DNA from: an uncultured delta proteobacterium
GTDB lineage: Bacteria; Myxococcota; Myxococcia; Myxococcales; Anaeromyxobacteraceae
Assembly: GCA_963828255.1 (NCBI GenBank)
Contig: CAWHDZ010000015.1
Coordinates: forward strand, 32,001 to 96,000
DNA: 64,000 bases
Direction: 5' to 3'
Shown: positions 28,801 to 40,800 of the stretch, piece after piece
Layout: every line of letters starts with the position of its first letter
Position numbering within the stretch: the first letter of the stretch is position 1
Position numbers: made by a program

Positions 28801-31800
28801 TCGCGCTTCTGTGCGACCGTGAGCGACGCCCGGGCCAGCGCGGTCTCGATCCGCATCACCGCCCGCGCGCCTGCCGCGGCCCGGTTGCCCGGGACGCCGG
28901 AGAGCCGGAGCGCGTGGTCCACGTGCGCCTGGTAGGCGCCGCGGAGTTCCCTGGAGCGGGCGTCTCCCTTCACGTAGTGGTTGCGATCGGGAAGCCCGAG
29001 TCCACCCGCCGACAGCCAGGCCATCTCCTCGCCGGCGTCGGCCTGGGACGGCTCGCTCCCGAAGCCGAAGAGCATGTGGCCGTCCACGTTTAGGTGGAGC
29101 CTCGCCACCAGCCTGGCCATCTCCGCCTTGGACCCGAGCGCGTCGATGGCGGCCAGGTCTGCTGCGATGGGCTTCGCGCCTGTCGCCTCGACCGCCTTCT
29201 CGTCCATGCAGGCGTGGAAGAAGTCGCCCGCCTTGCGCTCGGCCGGCGTTCGCTCGCCGTCGGGTTTCGCCGCCGCCCGCTCGAGCAGCCCCCAGAGGAG
29301 CCTGAGGTTCTGGGTGGCGCCCTTCTGGTGCACGCTCCAGGAAGTCTGGTCTGGCGGGATGGGGTTCCTCCGCAGCCAGCCCCCGCAGGCGTAGGCGTAG
29401 AAGTCCACGCAAGGATCGACCAATTGGTCCATCGCCGCGGGGTCGAGGCCGGGCGTGTAGGGAAGGGCCTCGAGGGGGCTGTCGGCGGCGAGGAGGGCGA
29501 GGGCCAGGAGGACGCTGGCGCAGGGCATCGGCGAGCATCCTAGCAGCGCCTCCCGTCAGGGCGCGAGGCCGGGCACCAGCTTCACGAGGAGCTCCGAGGC
29601 GGCGAGCTGGATGGCGTAGATCTCCAGCGTGTGCCGACCGACGAAGCGCAGGGCGCCGGCGACGTGTTCCGGCGGCTGGACGCGGCTCGGGCCGCGCCGG
29701 TACCGGCAGAGGCCGGCGCACAGCAAGCCCAGGCCGAGCGCGAGCGTGGCGAGCTGGGCCGGGGAGAAGGAGTAGACCCGGTTCTCCTGCCAGACGAAGA
29801 CGACCGCGGCGACCAGGCTCACCACGAGACGCATCGGGCCGGCGTACCCGGTCAGGCTGTCCACCCGCGACGAGTCGCCCACGGCGCCGGCGCCCGCGCC
29901 GGTCGAAGGCCTGCCATCGACATGGGCGCGCTGGAACAGCCCGAACAGGGCCCACAGCCACCCCTCCGAGCCGTACTCGACGACACTCTCGGCCACGGGG
30001 AGCGCGGCGACGAGCGCGACGACGAGGAGGGCGGCGCCGCCCCGGCCGTGACGCCGCAGGAAGGCCTGCACGGGGGGACGCGCCCAGCGGATGAGCGCGA
30101 AGCTCAAGAGGATGTTCGGCGCCTCCCAGCTCCACCCGGCGTTCCAGCTGGCGAGCAGGGTCAGGAGGACCCCGAGCCCGATCCACCGGAGCGGGACGGT
30201 CCGGGTCTGCGCGAAGCCGATGAGGAAGAAGAAGATGGGAGCCGCCAGGCACCCGATGGCGCTCCACCACGAGTCGTCCTCCATGAAGAACTGACCGAAG
30301 TGACCGACGGAGACGAGGAGGATCGCGCCGGCCTTCATCCAGTCGGTTCCGTCGACGAGGGGGCGTGGGCTGGCGCTTCTCGTCATCCGGGGAGACGGTC
30401 GCCTCGCGGTCGAAGTGCGAAGGGGGGATGGGGAGGCGGGCCGCTCGCCGGCTCCGCCGGGCTGCCCTCGTAGGTGCCCGGGGTCAGCCGCATCTCCTTG
30501 AGGACGAGGGACAGCGGCCCGACGGCGGTGTCCCGCTCGAGGACCGCGCCGCCCATCACGGTGGCGCCGAAGTCCACGGTGCAGCGATCCTCGATGCGGG
30601 TCCGCTTCACCTTCAGCATCATGTTCTCGAAGCTGTGGAACTGCAGGAAGCCGTCGATGACGCAGTCGTCGCCGAAGCGCACCGCGTTCCAGTCGGAGCA
30701 CTGGCGCGGCTGGGTCACGATCGTGCGGCGGCCGATCCTGCAGCCCATCCACCGGAGGACGGGGTTCGCGAGGACCGTCCCGGCGGTGAACTCCAGGGGC
30801 CGCCTGCACCATGCGATGAAGCAGTCCTGCGCGAAGAAGTAGGCGAGGTGGCGCCACGACCAGAAGGGCGTCGCGTGATCGGCTCCCCAGACGCGCCCGA
30901 CGAGGGCCGCCTTGACCGCTACGGAGAGCACGACGAGGCCGACCTCCGCGAGGATTGCCGCGGCCACCGCGCTCGCGATCGGATGCCCCACGAACCGCAA
31001 CAGGTGGACGTAAGCGATCGCGAAGACGAGCCCCTCGGCGAAGCGCAGCAGGCCGATGGCGAAGAGGTCGTTCAGGAAGACCCGGACGGCGAAGAGACCG
31101 AAGCCGGGCAGCTCGCGGGCCACCTCCCCCGCCTGGACCGGCGCGCTCCCGAACCTCACCGGCGGATTGCCCGCCACGGTGATGGGCTCGCCGGGCCGCG
31201 ACCGCATCTGTCTCCGGAACTGGATGTCGCTCGCCGGCGTGGAGACGCCCAGGAGGAAGTTGGAGGGGAGGTTCCCGTGCTCCGCCACGCAGTTGTTGCC
31301 GCTGAAGAAGTTTCGGGGCAGGTCGAGCGGGCGAAGCGTGAGGTGCTCGGGCCCCGGGTCCAGCATGCTCGTCATGGACCCGTTGCACCAGAACGCCTGG
31401 GAGTCGGCGCTGACGAGTTCCGGGACGAGGTTGATGAGGACGTCGCATTCCGAGGCGCCCACCCTCGGGAAGCGCACGCCGGCAAGTGCCCGGAGGTACT
31501 GCCCGATGACGGTCCAGGTCCAGAGCGCCTGGATGCCGTTCATCTTCTTCATCCGGTACAGGAGGAGCGCGCCCCGGAGCCCGTGCGAGGGGTAGAGCCC
31601 CGGCGAGGCGGCCGTGAAGCGGAGGAAGAGGCAGCCCAGCAGCGAGGTCGCGACGGCGGTGACCCAGGTGGTCACGAACGCGTAGATCGCGAGGTGCCAG
31701 GCGACCTCGGACAGCGGGGTCACCTGGAAGTACGCGCTGCGGAGCCCGGCCTCCCCCGCAAACGCGAGGTCGCGGGCGATCCAGAGGATTGCAGCGGCGG

Positions 31801-37800: not shown

Positions 37801-40800
37801 CCCCGACGACCCGCCCACGAACAGGCCGTGCCGCTCGAGCAGCTCGTGGCATGCACCGATCGTTTCGGCCTCCGGCACGATCACGACGTCGTCGATGAGC
37901 GCGTGCTGCAGCAGGGCAGGGCGGATGCTCGAGCCCAGCCCCGGGATCCGACGCGGCTTGGGCGGATGCCCGAAGATGACGGAGCCCTCCGAGTCCACCG
38001 CGACGATCTTCACGCGCGGGTCGTGCTCCTTCAGGCGCCTGGAGACGCCGGCGATCGTCCCGGCGGTGCTCACCGCGACGAAGACGTAGTCGACGGACGG
38101 AAGGGCCTCGACGATCTCGCCGGCCGTCAGGCGGTAGTGCGCATCGATCGCATCGGTGTTGCCGTACTGGTTCGGCCAGTAGGCGCCGGGGATCTCCGCC
38201 AGGAGGGCGCGGACCATCTGCAGGCGCGACTTGAGGTAGCCGCCCGCGTCGTCCGGCTCGCTGACCTTGACCACCCGGGCGCACTGGGCCCCCAGGGACG
38301 CCTCGAGGAGCGGTGACGTGTTCGGGTCGATGACCGGGATGAAGTCGAGGTCCAGCATGGCGGCGAAGAGGGCCAAGGCGCGGCCGAAGTTCCCGGACGA
38401 GGATTCGACGAGGGTCGTCCCCGGACCGATCTCCCCCCGCTCGATGGCTCGCTTGAGGATCCAGAGCGCCGGCCTGTCCTTCAGGCTGCCGAGCCCGTTC
38501 AGGAACTCGAGCTTGGCGAACAGGTCGAGGCGGTCGTCGGCGACTCGCACGACCGGTGTTGGCCGGAGCATCCGCTCCAGCATCGCGACCCGGTCGAGGA
38601 GGCGGCCCTTTCGGGTCATTGCGAGACTCCTCCTACTGCGGCGCGGGAACCACGACGTAGTAGGGCCCGAAATCGCTCCCCTTCAACCAGTTCGGCCCGC
38701 AAACCTGGAAAGGCTCCCCCTTGACGGACACCGAGGTGCAGCCCGATGGGAGCTCGCTCAGCTGCGTGTTCATCGGGAGCTTGGTGGTCAAGGGGGCCGG
38801 AGGACGAGGGGGCGGCGGCGCGACGTAGACCGGCGGCGGAGCGTAGTAGACGGGCGGCGGCGCGTAGTAGACGGGGCGCGGGGCGTAGTAGACAGGGGCG
38901 CGGACGACGACCCACGCCGCGGTGGGGCGCGGCAGGGCCACGACCAGGGTGACGGCGAGGGCGAGGAGGCTGGCGCGCATGCGGGGCTCCTACCGGAAGG
39001 CGCTGCAAGCGTCGCGGAACTCGACCTGCGCGACGCCAGCGGGCCTTGGAAGGGCGAAGGTGGAGGCCGGCAGCTCCCGGTCCAGCTGCCAGTCGAAGTA
39101 CTCGGAGGAGAAGTGGGGGCTCCGCGGATGGTCCGTATAGACCACGGCCGCGCGGGCCGGCAGCGCCGTGGCCGGGTCGATCCAGAGCTCGAGCTGTAGC
39201 CCGGGGCTGACGACCAGGATGTGCTCGGTCTTCTTCCCGTCCACGGTGGACGGACCGAGGCCCGCGACCTGCGTGGCCCCCTTGGTGATGGCGGCGAACG
39301 GGTCCGCGACCAGGATCTCGTCCGACGGGAAGGACAGCCCTCCCTGCTCCGCCGCGGCGAAGATCATGGCGTCGAGGGTGGGCGGGGCGGCCGTGGTCCC
39401 CCACGCGCCGGCGCCGGGCGAGAAGGCGGTCATCGCCTTCCCGTCGTAGGCGAACCGGAACTCGGGCAGGTCTCCTCCCCGACTCACCGCCAGGCCATCG
39501 GGGCGCCGCACCGCCACGTGGGCGCCGTTGACGAAGGTGGCCAGCGCGCCTCCGGCCACCGGCAGCTCCAGTGCCACACGGGCCCGGAACGTGAACGTCC
39601 GGGCTCCCCGGAGCCGATCGCTCATCTTCTTCACCAGCGCCAGGGACGCCGGGTCGCGCTCCGGCGCCGGCTGGGCGGCCGGCGCTTCCGCGGTGGCCGC
39701 CGGCGGCGTGGGCGGGGACGGTGAGGGGGCCAGCGTCGCTTGCCCGCCCGCGGAGAGGAGTAGCGCGATGGCCCAGCTGGCGAAGCTCATGTGGCCCTCC
39801 CTGGTGCCCGTGCGCAAGAATACAAGAGAGGCAATCTAGCACAGCCATGTGCGCTGGACGGGGAGACACGCCGGTGGCGTTGCCGGAGGAGGATGACTAT
39901 GATGCGGCCTCGGATTGGAAGCGAGTGGACTCCTGAGGAGGGTGACGTCATGACCGGACTGAAGGCGGTTTCTGCCGTCCTGGTGGGATTGGGCATCTTC
40001 GTATCGATGACGGAGGTCGCCTCCGCGCAGCTGCGGGGCAAGCGCGGCCCACCCGCCGCCGCGGAGGCGCCGGCGCAGGCTCCCTCGCTCCCACCCGCGG
40101 TCAGCCAGGCCTTCCAGGCCCGCTTCCCGCAGGGCAAGATCACGGAATCCGAGTCGGAGGCCACGGACGGCGTCACCCTGTACTACGTTGACTTCACCGA
40201 GGGTTCCGCCGAGAAGACGGCCACCATCTCCGCCAGCGGCATCGTGATGGAGGTCGGGCAGCCGATCTCGTCGAGCAGCGTCCCCGCGGTGGTGATGAAC
40301 GCGATCAAGAAGGCAGCCGCCGGCGCGAAGATCGGAGAGATCATGCGCACCGAGATCACCCACGAGGCCGAGAACGGCGCCGTGACCAAGCTGCCGACGC
40401 CGGACACCGAGTACACCGCCGAGCTGACGAGCGGGAAGAAGTCGGGCGAAGTGACCGTCGGCTCGGACGGGACCGTGGTCGACCCGGTCAGCTGGGAGTA
40501 GGCCCGGGGGCGACCCGGAGCTGACCAGCCTCTCGGTCGCCCAAATACGATACGTGAATGGAACGGCGTTCGACGCGGCGTGGGGCCGGGAGCTGACGAC
40601 GGTATCCAGCTCCACGATGGCGAGGGTCTCGGCCCATCGGCTCCAGGAACGGCGGAGCAGGGTCCAGAAGACCCGATCGGCGGGCCGGATGTCGGGGGTG
40701 CCTCCGCCCGGCCAGGGTGACGAGCTGTTGGCGGAGGGCCAGGTTCTCGAGGACGAGATCCTGGCGAGGGCGCATCCCCGAGAGGAGCGTCGGCAGCAGG

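Follow-up and report, generated by a model that had tools for sequence, protein, structure and literature searches.

An amidinotransferase-synthetase cassette of uncultured bacteria with a predicted diaminopropionate-derived, guanidino-bearing product

What could be made by a gene set that combines synthesis of L-2,3-diaminopropionate (Dap), amidino transfer and a synthetase of the Pls/PosA type? Such a set lies in the window analyzed here, a stretch of 64,000 nucleotides from the genome of an uncultured delta proteobacterium. To our knowledge, the known bacterial polycations of the Pls/PosA family carry primary amines only. Polyarginine-like polymers are antimicrobial and cell-penetrating. 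The cassette predicts a natural positively charged polymer that has not yet been isolated by anyone and, if this is true, guanidino-bearing polycations would be new as a natural chemotype and would stand near such polymers. In the literature searched, which did not extend to the main supplement of PMC10522769, no published description of the cassette was found.

The initial annotation had described a compact minus-strand operon at 29556-38619, and this interval is indeed filled by six intact, tightly packed open reading frames encoding SbnA, SbnB, a phosphopantetheinyl transferase (PPTase), a StrB1-like amidinotransferase (AT), a Pls/PosA-type synthetase and a membrane protein (Table 1). The cassette is an insertion that is absent from 13 genomes of the same genus. 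Its PPTase is approximately 30% identical to a PPTase family present in 40 of 76 related loci.

Table 1. Features of the cassette, numbered along the window
Feature	Position	Strand	Description
sbnA	37588..38619	-	PLP enzyme of Dap synthesis, 343 aa; TIGR03945, PDB 5D84
sbnB	36590..37588	-	Dap-synthesis dehydrogenase, 332 aa; TIGR03944; start overlaps sbnA stop
PPTase	35851..36576	-	241 aa; PF01648 E 6e-17
Amidinotransferase	34743..35792	-	349 aa, StrB1-like; 1BWD E 7e-106
Membrane-bound single-module Pls/PosA-like synthetase	30383..34702	-	1439 aa, GTG start; PF00501, PF00550, hexapeptide repeats
Extra N-terminal TM helix of synthetase, residues 1-25	34628..34702	-	Hydropathy 2.44
Adenylation domain, ~residues 61-560	33023..34522	-	Code register from LgrA alignment
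Thiolation domain, ~residues 601-670	32693..32902	-	PF00550 at 617-664; Ser631 in GGDS
C-terminal polymerase region, residues 690-1420	30443..32635	-	Three TM pairs with C1-C3; hydropathy
Predicted TraX-type transmembrane acyltransferase (TmAT superfamily)	29556..30386	-	276 aa; start overlaps synthetase stop

The earlier locus search was reproduced (220 stretches, 76 loci), but the claim that a five-gene order is kept in at least eight phyla was not: the order sbnA-sbnB-AT-synthetase-TraX was found in only 25 of the 76 loci, which by record title belong to Acidobacteriota, Verrucomicrobiae, Alphaproteobacteria and strain NaphS2. The spread over eight phyla is valid for the synthetase gene only, and two of the eight phylum labels rest on one contig each, whose DNA matches alphaproteobacterial loci at 98.8% (L017) and 94% (L053) identity. 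Of the 67 genome loci with sufficient DNA upstream, 63 have the AT gene next to the synthetase gene, as do all 33 loci of a divergent branch that is only 43% identical; AT is adjacent in both branches, and it is more conserved than the synthetase. One of the four loci without AT, L036, has a second, AT-linked synthetase copy on the same contig. The fixed core is AT plus synthetase, usually with an acyltransferase, and the cassette is a mobile gene set of many uncultured soil, sediment and marine bacteria. A gene for an S41 peptidase was present in 39 of the 76 loci, and no close copy of this peptidase was detected in the genome of the window.

The assignment of SbnA-like and SbnB-like enzymes of Dap synthesis held: the genes are adjacent, both products exceed the NCBIfam cut-offs (TIGR03945, 376.8 bits versus 349.95; TIGR03944, 389.8 bits versus 326.9), and their best PDB matches are Staphylococcus aureus SbnA (5D84, E 3e-61) and 4M54 (E 4e-33), respectively. 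The window sbnA represents its own lineage, 35-43% identical to sbnA of other cassettes. Five separate sbnAB lineages (between lineages, 27-53% identity for SbnB and 30-43% for SbnA) occur beside AT genes of a single family (103 copies that are 63% alike or more), which supports Dap as the building block, and sbnA together with sbnB was found in 35 of 47 well-flanked loci. On the other side, SbnA and SbnB over cut-off were absent genome-wide from 18 of 20 genomes with an sbnAB-less locus, these genomes being incomplete and of unstated completeness. In the divergent branch, sbnB occurred in only 14 of 24 loci and was cleanly missing at one syntenic site. Absence of sbnAB is scattered over the AT tree (8 changes), and the lineages concerned keep the same adenylation pocket and AT active site; since a Dab transaminase was found in none of 18, the source of their monomer is unexplained. 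The lack of sbnAB in these 18 genomes and in 10 of 24 divergent loci, its scatter and the unchanged pocket and AT site would agree with a monomer that is not tied to Dap. In this case the substrate of AT would be some common amino acid or amine, with sbnAB as an optional source of an alternative or second unit. However, five separate recruitments of sbnAB to the same genes argue against such a view, Dab supply does not account for the gaps, and loss of sbnAB with uptake of Dap would leave the same pattern; we consider it quite improbable.

AT is StrB1-like, in line with the initial annotation. StrB1 (1BWD) is its best solved relative, matched over the full length, and the triad Cys333/His224/Asp176 plus a family-specific Asp285 are present in all 61 copies; the triad is also intact in the divergent branch. 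The Cys-His-Asp triad and the full-length match to solved members identify an L-Arg-dependent amidinotransferase, whereas an inosamine-phosphate acceptor as used by StrB1 is not indicated, considering that the acceptor-side motifs differ and that no aminocyclitol genes recur near the cassette in related loci. Among 31 outside ATs read, only a Robbsia protein shares the acceptor-side motifs of the cassette AT. Outside the cassette, the nearest AT detected (64.5% identity) has Asp285 and adjoins a PGM1-related peptide ligase. For cryptomaldamide, it has been proposed that an alpha-amine is amidinated before the NRPS loads the building block. The initial annotation had seen a paradox in that a guanidino side chain cannot form the isopeptide bond of known polymers of this class; placing the amidino group at the alpha-nitrogen would lessen this difficulty.

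The synthetase has the layout of cationic homopoly(amino acid) (CHPA) synthetases, namely an adenylation (A) and a thiolation (T) domain, found with the three TM pairs where they had been placed before, and a membrane domain with three soluble repeats, without C or TE domains. It scores 176.1 bits against TIGR02353, below the curated cut-off of 423.1, and matches a protein with the PosA code over residues 63-1424 (25.7%). Ser631 of the T domain is conserved in 70 of 70 copies, within GGDS in the window and GGHS in most relatives. A previously unmentioned N-terminal TM helix occurs in 91 of 108 full-length homologues, and none of 42 listed proteins from outside the cassette clade exceeds an N-terminal hydropathy of 1.5. 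The C-terminal region, with six long helices in a low-confidence structure model, contains the conserved CHPA residues QxHxFE in C3 and Glu and Asn in C2; over rows that span the whole family, Glu1085 is found in 72 of 72, and Asn1136, Gln1354, His1356 and Glu1359 in 70 of 72, a conservation that suggests a catalytic role. A repeat profile detects repeats 1 and 3, and repeat 2 only weakly (E 1.5; for two further Pls-like proteins, the values are 1e-6 to 1e-7). In three trees, in which characterized CHPA enzymes are represented by proteins with their codes rather than by the enzymes themselves, the synthetase falls in its own clade outside that holding the Lys, PosA and Phe-Glu codes. Union with the canonical CHPA clade, a grouping chosen after a tree had been seen, was disfavored (AU p 7e-5), and no characterized synthetase was placed inside the cassette clade in any of the three trees.

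The pocket code D-G-S-F-V-A-T-T-D-K was obtained again (D256, G257, S260, F299, V325, A327, T349, T357, D358, K551). The pattern D-G-[S/P]-F-[V/I]-A-T-[T/S]-D is present in 79 of 79 copies, K551 in 70 of 70, and the same code in all 47 readable copies of the divergent branch, where position 3 is always Ser. Asp358 had been taken as a sign of a basic side chain; the residue is there, but alone it is weak evidence of such a substrate because Asp at position 9 also occurs in adenylation domains for Ser, Glu and Gln. In SulA3, the Asp residues that occupy positions 8 and 9 bind the beta-amine of Dap, position 9 at a distance of 2.6 A (PMC12042044). Glu at position 3 is the hallmark of CHPA synthetases (PMC10522769, PMC12042044), and the cassette clade departs from this published substrate rule. 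At positions 2 and 3, poly-Dap synthetases known so far carry Phe and Glu, respectively, and the cassette clade Gly and Ser/Pro. This difference, together with the conserved and adjacent AT and the AT-linked second copy in L036, makes it very improbable that plain beta-poly-Dap is made while AT serves a separate purpose, even though a Pls-like enzyme of Streptomyces albulus makes poly-Dap (PMC4668381), Asp358 fits a free Dap beta-amine and 4 of 67 loci lack AT.

It is also possible, though unlikely, that AT amidinates the beta-amine of Dap and that the synthetase alpha-links the resulting beta-guanidino-L-alanine, a short arginine analogue, into a polyarginine-like oligomer or a short cyclized product. 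A short guanidino side chain could also be accommodated by a pocket that lacks Glu at position 3 and has small residues at positions 2 and 3 and one Asp at position 9, Asp285 of AT could hold an alpha-amine as well as a beta-amine, and a Bdellovibrionales homologue with the code DSECYGGVTK shows modest or weak activation of L-Arg (PMC10522769). Nevertheless, the characterized family products named in PMC10522769 are all side-chain isopeptides, and the DSECYGGVTK clade was not the sister of the cassette clade in any of the three trees.

The last gene had been annotated as a 260-aa membrane protein. It does encode a membrane protein, but the better model is 276 aa long, from an ATG at 30386, and judged by its sequence the product is a TraX/AT3-type transmembrane acyltransferase, which had been overlooked (PF01757, E 2e-11; PF05857, E 6e-6). 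Its structure model (pLDDT 84) gave as top folds among 48161 chains HGSNAT (Z 9.4, rmsd 5.8, 219 aligned), HGSNAT (9.0) and GWT1 (7.5), values (rmsd 5.8-7.1) that are modest for a helical bundle, and Foldseek returned no match at E 0.001. The TmAT motifs (in TM1, DxxR/K with His/Asn eleven residues on; in TM2, FxxxxG; a late Tyr) are seen as D15-x-x-K18-x10-H29, F52xxxxG57 and T253xxxY257, conserved in 42-44 of 44. The window copy has Cys46 where relatives have Arg (43/44) and Val204 where they have Glu (44/44). Fusion of acyltransferase and synthetase was seen in 13 of 120 homologues, as well as in 7 of 18 cases in which the two adjoin, and the divergent branch has a DUF418/HGSNAT-type enzyme with D-x-x-R-x10-N instead (37/37 loci). 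A transmembrane acyltransferase that is fused, or exchanged for another family, makes a plain homopolymer unlikely. In two clades, the poorly understood C-terminal domain of Pls is linked with such acyltransferases, a connection relevant to chain ending and export.

TmAT enzymes transfer acyl groups to acceptors at the outer face (PMC12423673); they bind their donor at its pantetheine part, and the acceptors that they modify belong to the envelope. Possibly, no free polymer is released, and synthetase and acyltransferase form one membrane machine that transfers a guanidino-aminoacyl group or a short oligomer off the carrier domain to an acceptor in the envelope (lipid, LPS, glycan or protein), with surface charge lowered as by the Dlt system. 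The acyltransferase, fused or adjacent and drawn from two TmAT families, and the extra membrane anchor would suit this idea, as would the finding that no exporter genes recur among clustered neighbors of cassette loci. Still, residues that proven polymerase clades have without exception are kept in the three-repeat C-terminal domain. No glycan or lipid enzymes recur across the 76 genome loci, and among 60 metagenome loci a recurrent glycosyltransferase is confined to 7. An acyltransferase is lacking in the vicinity in 9 of 47 well-flanked loci, and TmAT donors on record are acyl-CoAs. On these grounds, we regard the idea as doubtful.

The reading that we prefer, at a probability of roughly 40%, is that the cassette makes a short, cationic, beta-linked Dap oligomer with alpha-guanidino groups that is exported and acyl-capped. 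SbnA and SbnB would supply Dap, as their families do; AT would transfer the amidino group of L-Arg to it, most likely to the alpha-nitrogen; and the PPTase would prime Ser631. In the A domain, which would load the short monomer, Asp358 would bind the free beta-amine, and Gly257 and Ser/Pro260 would give space for the amidino group, as the code suggests. Judging from its conserved layout and residues, the C-terminal membrane domain may link the monomers by beta-amide bonds and move the growing product outward, the action presumed for Pls and PosA. The TraX- or DUF418-type enzyme may then acylate, probably acetylate, a free amine of the chain at the outer face, and the signal-less S41 peptidase, where present, might trim or detoxify the product. 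Amidination could precede or follow loading and affect every unit or the end only. The near-fixed AT-synthetase pairing, the five sbnAB lineages and the SulA3 structure support a Dap-derived guanidino product, and the reading as a whole is also favored by the pocket code shared by both branches, the family-wide C-domain residues, the isopeptide products of the family, the cryptomaldamide precedent, the outside AT beside a peptide ligase, the acyltransferase fusion and the outer-face action of TmAT enzymes. Against it stand the sbnAB gaps, one pocket Asp versus two in SulA3, a clade without a characterized synthetase, the 9 loci without acyltransferase, the Cys46 and Val204 changes and the poorly recognized middle repeat. 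As for the initial proposal, its Dap-derived guanidino product, made by a Pls-type enzyme, is still the best reading; a plain homopolymer is unlikely, and sbnAB is often missing genome-wide. More speculatively, and rather unlikely in this specific form, a separate Pls-type branch may make a natural guanidinium polymer, poly-beta-(N-alpha-amidino-L-Dap), and pass it through the membrane to a fused TmAT for capping or envelope tethering. Polymerase and acyltransferase would then be one machine, distributed over uncultured bacteria of soil and sea, that makes a polycation for the surface or for secretion.

Compared with Pls, PosA and the PDAP synthetase (PMC10522769, PMC4668381), the cassette synthetase shares the A-T-membrane C1/C2/C3 architecture with three TM pairs, QxHxFE, Glu1085, Asn1136 and an often adjacent PPTase, and is 26-28% identical to proteins with PosA, Lys and Phe-Glu codes; it differs in lacking Glu at position 3, in Asp at position 9, in the extra N-terminal TM helix, and in its near-fixed AT partner and fused or adjacent transmembrane acyltransferase. 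The DSECYGGVTK clade has the top BLAST identity outside the cassette clade (31-32%), a QxH[ST]FE motif and, in some members, an HGSNAT/DUF418 part fused at the C-terminus (seen in each of 3 long members that were scanned), but retains Glu at position 3; no AT was found among 9 neighbors scanned of one annotated member. The Dap-activating A3 domain of SulM (sulfazecin; PDB 9N1V, PMC12042044) likewise has Asp at positions 1 and 9, the latter near the beta-carbon, whereas position 8 is Asp there and Thr/Ser in the cassette, and positions 2 and 3 are bulky Val and Trp there but Gly and Ser/Pro in the cassette; moreover, SulM is a multimodular NRPS rather than a polymerase. With StrB1 (PDB 1BWD), AT shares the catalytic triad (48% identity to an annotated StrB1-like protein) but has other acceptor-side motifs, YxGSHID and GSxWIDMN with Asp285. 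Finally, the acyltransferase shares DxxK/R-x10-H/N, FxxxxG and the late Tyr motif with F-plasmid TraX, HGSNAT and YeiB/DUF418 (PMC12423673, whose text does not mention NRPS), and differs from them in being coupled or fused to an NRPS-like polymerase.

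The cassette on the minus strand at 29556-38619 is a real, mobile and widespread unit whose centre is a Pls-type synthetase from an uncharacterised clade. In the window it comprises six intact ORFs, with overlapping or closely spaced junctions, including the sbnA/sbnB pair (sbnAB) for synthesis of L-2,3-diaminopropionate (Dap) and a StrB1-like amidinotransferase (AT).

Genes of the cassette (window positions)
Gene	Position	Strand	Features
sbnA	38619-37588	minus	Over NCBIfam cut-off; best match is the solved S. aureus enzyme
sbnB	37588-36590	minus	Over NCBIfam cut-off; best match is the solved S. 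aureus enzyme
PPTase	36576-35851	minus	
AT	35792-34743	minus	StrB1 match, E 7e-106
Synthetase	34702-30383	minus	A and T domains, three TM pairs, N-terminal TM helix
Membrane protein	30386-29556	minus	TraX/Acyl_transf_3 match

The synthetase layout described in the initial annotation (A domain, T domain and three TM pairs) was recovered, and an N-terminal TM helix that it did not list, present in 91 of 108 full-length homologues, was added. A promoter and terminator scan of the cassette detected no signal exceeding that of shuffled sequences, and three metatranscriptome contig sets held short, low-depth pieces of cassette and flanks alike, which are uninformative on transcription.

The cassette block is an insertion. 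The DNA matches listed for 13 genomes of the same genus end at about 29542 and restart at about 38900, skipping the cassette. Within the family, 91 other genomes yielded no full Pls-type C-terminal region, and a search of 67 genomes at E 1e-40 detected no AT. Its GC content is that of the genome. On one flank (22645-22871) lie tRNA-Gln and tRNA-Glu genes and on the opposite flank (40488-45137) an AbiEii fragment, a molybdate-type binding protein and an Acr3-like arsenic-resistance group; the tRNA genes on one side and the AbiEii/Acr3-like group on the other suggest a wider variable region. An M13 metallopeptidase gene (27504-29528), 27 bp past the cassette on the same strand and with a 72% paralogue elsewhere in the genome, was rejected as a cassette member, being found at only 3 of 76 loci (best 80 of 220 stretches) and common in the genus.

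These 76 loci come from a genome scan that yielded 220 stretches, the best 80 of which were retained. Within them, the AT was present at 63 of the 67 loci having at least 1.5 kb of upstream DNA. Among the 47 long-flanked loci of the same best 80 stretches, 45 had the AT, 35 sbnA and sbnB, 33 the PPTase and 32 an S41 peptidase, while the membrane protein (34 loci) and a DUF418 protein (4 loci) never occurred together. The five-gene order initially described as conserved is kept in only 25 of the 76 loci (best 80 of 220 stretches). A profile-free search of 50% representatives added a divergent branch, 43% identical (P0133 type), which accounts for 46 of the 60 metagenome loci fetched with it. 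In this branch the AT was found in all 33 loci with upstream DNA, DUF418 in all 37 with downstream DNA and sbnB in 14 of 24, and matches to TraX, S41 and PPTase were absent from the 46 loci; as close kin, these loci count as one or few events. Because the AT and the synthetase are kept across both locus sets, they form the constant core, usually together with a membrane acyltransferase. Cassette DNA is 98.8-99% identical among three loci (L016, L017 and L018) and 94% between two others (L053 and L060) from bins labelled as different phyla, which indicates recent transfer or misbinning; in the multi-phylum spread proposed earlier, two of the phyla are represented by contigs that hardly differ from alphaproteobacterial loci.

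At several loci (L037, L038, L040 and L036/L041) the synthetase is duplicated, in tandem or convergent arrangement. The two copies share their pocket code; one adjoins the AT and the other the TraX-like gene. The S41 peptidase (Tricorn C1 plus S41; L008:15498-16517 and 38 other loci of the 76 from the best 80 of 220 stretches) is 71-100% conserved, has no visible signal peptide and shifts position within the cassette, sometimes lying between the AT and the synthetase; it is absent from the window locus and the divergent branch. Poly-lysine-degrading peptidases protect poly-lysine producers (PMC8506220), and by analogy the S41 protein may have such a role. At 14 of the 76 genome loci (best 80 of 220 stretches) and 32 of the 60 metagenome loci, often directly upstream of the AT, lies a gene for a small acidic protein (about 134 aa; L010:8265-8669) that probably has a signal peptide; it belongs to no Pfam family, gave a weak Atlas lead to NIPSNAP/ABM-like barrels (0.82) and could bind the product.

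The synthetase scored 176 bits against TIGR02353, below the cut-off of 423. In trees of both the A domain and the C-terminal region, the cassette synthetases come out as one fully supported clade. It shares its branch with other pockets devoid of Glu at position 3 and stands separate from proteins with the Lys, PosA and Phe-Glu codes. Union with this canonical group was rejected (p-AU 7e-5), for a grouping picked after the tree had been seen and with long branches; three trees argue against a DSECYGGVT clade as sister. Glu1085, Asn1136 and a QxHxFE motif are kept over 72 rows spanning the whole family, so the polymerase region looks functional, although the middle C-terminal repeat has diverged. 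An AlphaFold2 model of the C-terminal region had a mean pLDDT of 41 and left the beta-helices unresolved, and a PDB sequence search returned only weak beta-helix matches. Stand-alone proteins of about 255-300 aa that correspond to one such repeat, a TM pair plus beta-helix (L078-L101, e.g. L083:1321-2106), are present in 33 of 91 same-family genomes, and a profile of 24 of them detects three repeats in two Pls-like proteins; they are possibly homotrimeric acyltransferases showing the ancestral unit. The ORFs on either side of one copy read as Wzc-like and O-antigen-polymerase-like.

The specificity code D-G-[S/P]-F-[V/I]-A-T-[T/S]-D-K, ending in Lys551, was found in all readable copies (79/79 and 47/47). 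Glu at position 3, a hallmark of synthetases of cationic homopoly(amino acids) (CHPA) according to PMC10522769 and PMC12042044, is absent from this clade. In SulA3, the Dap-activating A domain of sulfazecin synthesis, Asp at positions 8 and 9 bind the Dap beta-amine (PMC12042044). In the cassette pocket position 9 is Asp, position 8 is Thr or Ser, and the residues at 2 and 3 are small. Such a pocket suits a three-carbon diamino backbone plus extra bulk, without indicating where that bulk sits. Four other Pls-like proteins, one from a eukaryotic transcriptome record, have Arg or Asp at position 3 (P0186, P0206, P0264 and P0222: DVRCYAGMS, DIRNYAGMS, DIRSYAGMS and DSDFYGGIC); the Arg may point to an acidic monomer.

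Evidence on Dap as the monomer points both ways. In its favour, five sbnA/sbnB lineages (SbnA 30-43% and SbnB 27-53% alike), of which the window pair is a separate one, lie beside one AT family whose 103 copies are all at least 63% alike; in the divergent branch SbnB is over its cut-off and SbnA under (268 bits), the SbnA family still being the best match. Plain poly-Dap as the product we regard as very unlikely. Against Dap, 18 of 20 genomes chosen for an sbnAB-less locus had neither gene over cut-off, all four positive controls being found. The sbnAB-less loci are scattered over a quick AT tree and have an unchanged pocket and AT active site. The missing genes could reflect loss combined with Dap uptake, incompleteness of the genomes or a second substrate; a monomer other than Dap, which these genomes would favour and the five lineages would not, is rather improbable. 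Three substitutes were rejected: Dab (TIGR00709 at E 1e-90 in 0/18 of these genomes vs 1/24 with sbnAB), a divergent SbnA elsewhere (the sub-cut-off matches inspected, which cover 5 of the 9 regions fetched, resemble cysteine synthases or cystathionine beta-synthases) and, in the divergent branch, an amino acid permease, which is present with or without sbnAB.

The last cassette gene matches Acyl_transf_3 and TraX. When its structure model (pLDDT 84) was compared with 48161 chains, the three best-ranked were two of HGSNAT and one of GWT1, with modest Z values, and Foldseek returned no match. TraX and HGSNAT both act on terminal amines. Motifs of the transmembrane acyltransferase (TmAT) superfamily, as set out in PMC12423673, are kept in 42-44 of 44 copies (D15-x-x-K18-x10-H29, FxxxxG and a late Tyr), and the DUF418 partner has D-x-x-R-x10-N in 34/34. 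Of the 120 homologues listed, 13 have the TraX domain fused to the synthetase, as do 7 of the 18 loci where TraX directly follows the synthetase (best 80 of 220 stretches). Since the window copy has Cys46 and Val204 at sites holding Arg and Glu in relatives, its acyltransferase may be impaired. Three Pls-like synthetases of another clade (P0181, P0221 and P0303) are fused to an HGSNAT/DUF418 acyltransferase, apparently a second polymerase-TmAT coupling; the code of P0181 and P0221, DSECYGGVTK, is the Arg-activating code given in PMC10522769. Pilin is acetylated by TraX, and heparan sulfate by HGSNAT (PMC12423673). Transfer to an envelope acceptor, in place of a released product, seems unlikely.

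Gene identities, linkage, fusions and conserved residues are direct observations, and from gene content, with Dap supply often missing, we infer all chemical steps after Dap. The product that we tentatively favour, at a probability of about 0.4, is an oligomer in which Dap units would be joined by beta linkage and carry amidino groups on the alpha-nitrogen, and which would leave through the synthetase and then be acyl-capped outside. An alpha-linked product of beta-guanidinoalanine seems unlikely. With amidination of the alpha-nitrogen, the units would still be joined by side-chain isopeptide bonds, as in every characterised member of the family, and this would remove the paradox raised in the initial annotation, that a guanidino side chain is unable to form the isopeptide bond. 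A possible parallel for this oligomer is cryptomaldamide, for which amidination of serine, with its alpha-amine only, has been proposed to precede NRPS loading. PGM1-type ligases accept N-amidino amino acids, and such ligases and ATs co-occur in the ketomemicin cluster. The closest AT found outside the cassette (64.5%), on a Robbsia andropogonis plasmid, has the family-specific Asp285; its operon also contains a PGM1-related ligase gene, and ectB is close by. This plasmid p3 cluster (L132:5337-16041) encodes the AT, a PGM1/BesA-type ligase, an aldehyde dehydrogenase, an SDR and a SIS protein; ectB and the genes for a PurD-like ligase and an MFS exporter occupy the opposite strand. The cluster looks like one for an undescribed small guanidino metabolite.

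In literature mostly outside subscription journals, no paper was found that describes a Pls-type synthetase together with an AT or a TmAT enzyme; the clade may be in Supplementary Table 2 of PMC10522769, and a term search of three supplementary files of that paper returned nothing on it. Compared with known CHPA systems, the cassette would work alike, yet it lacks two of the features that mark their members.
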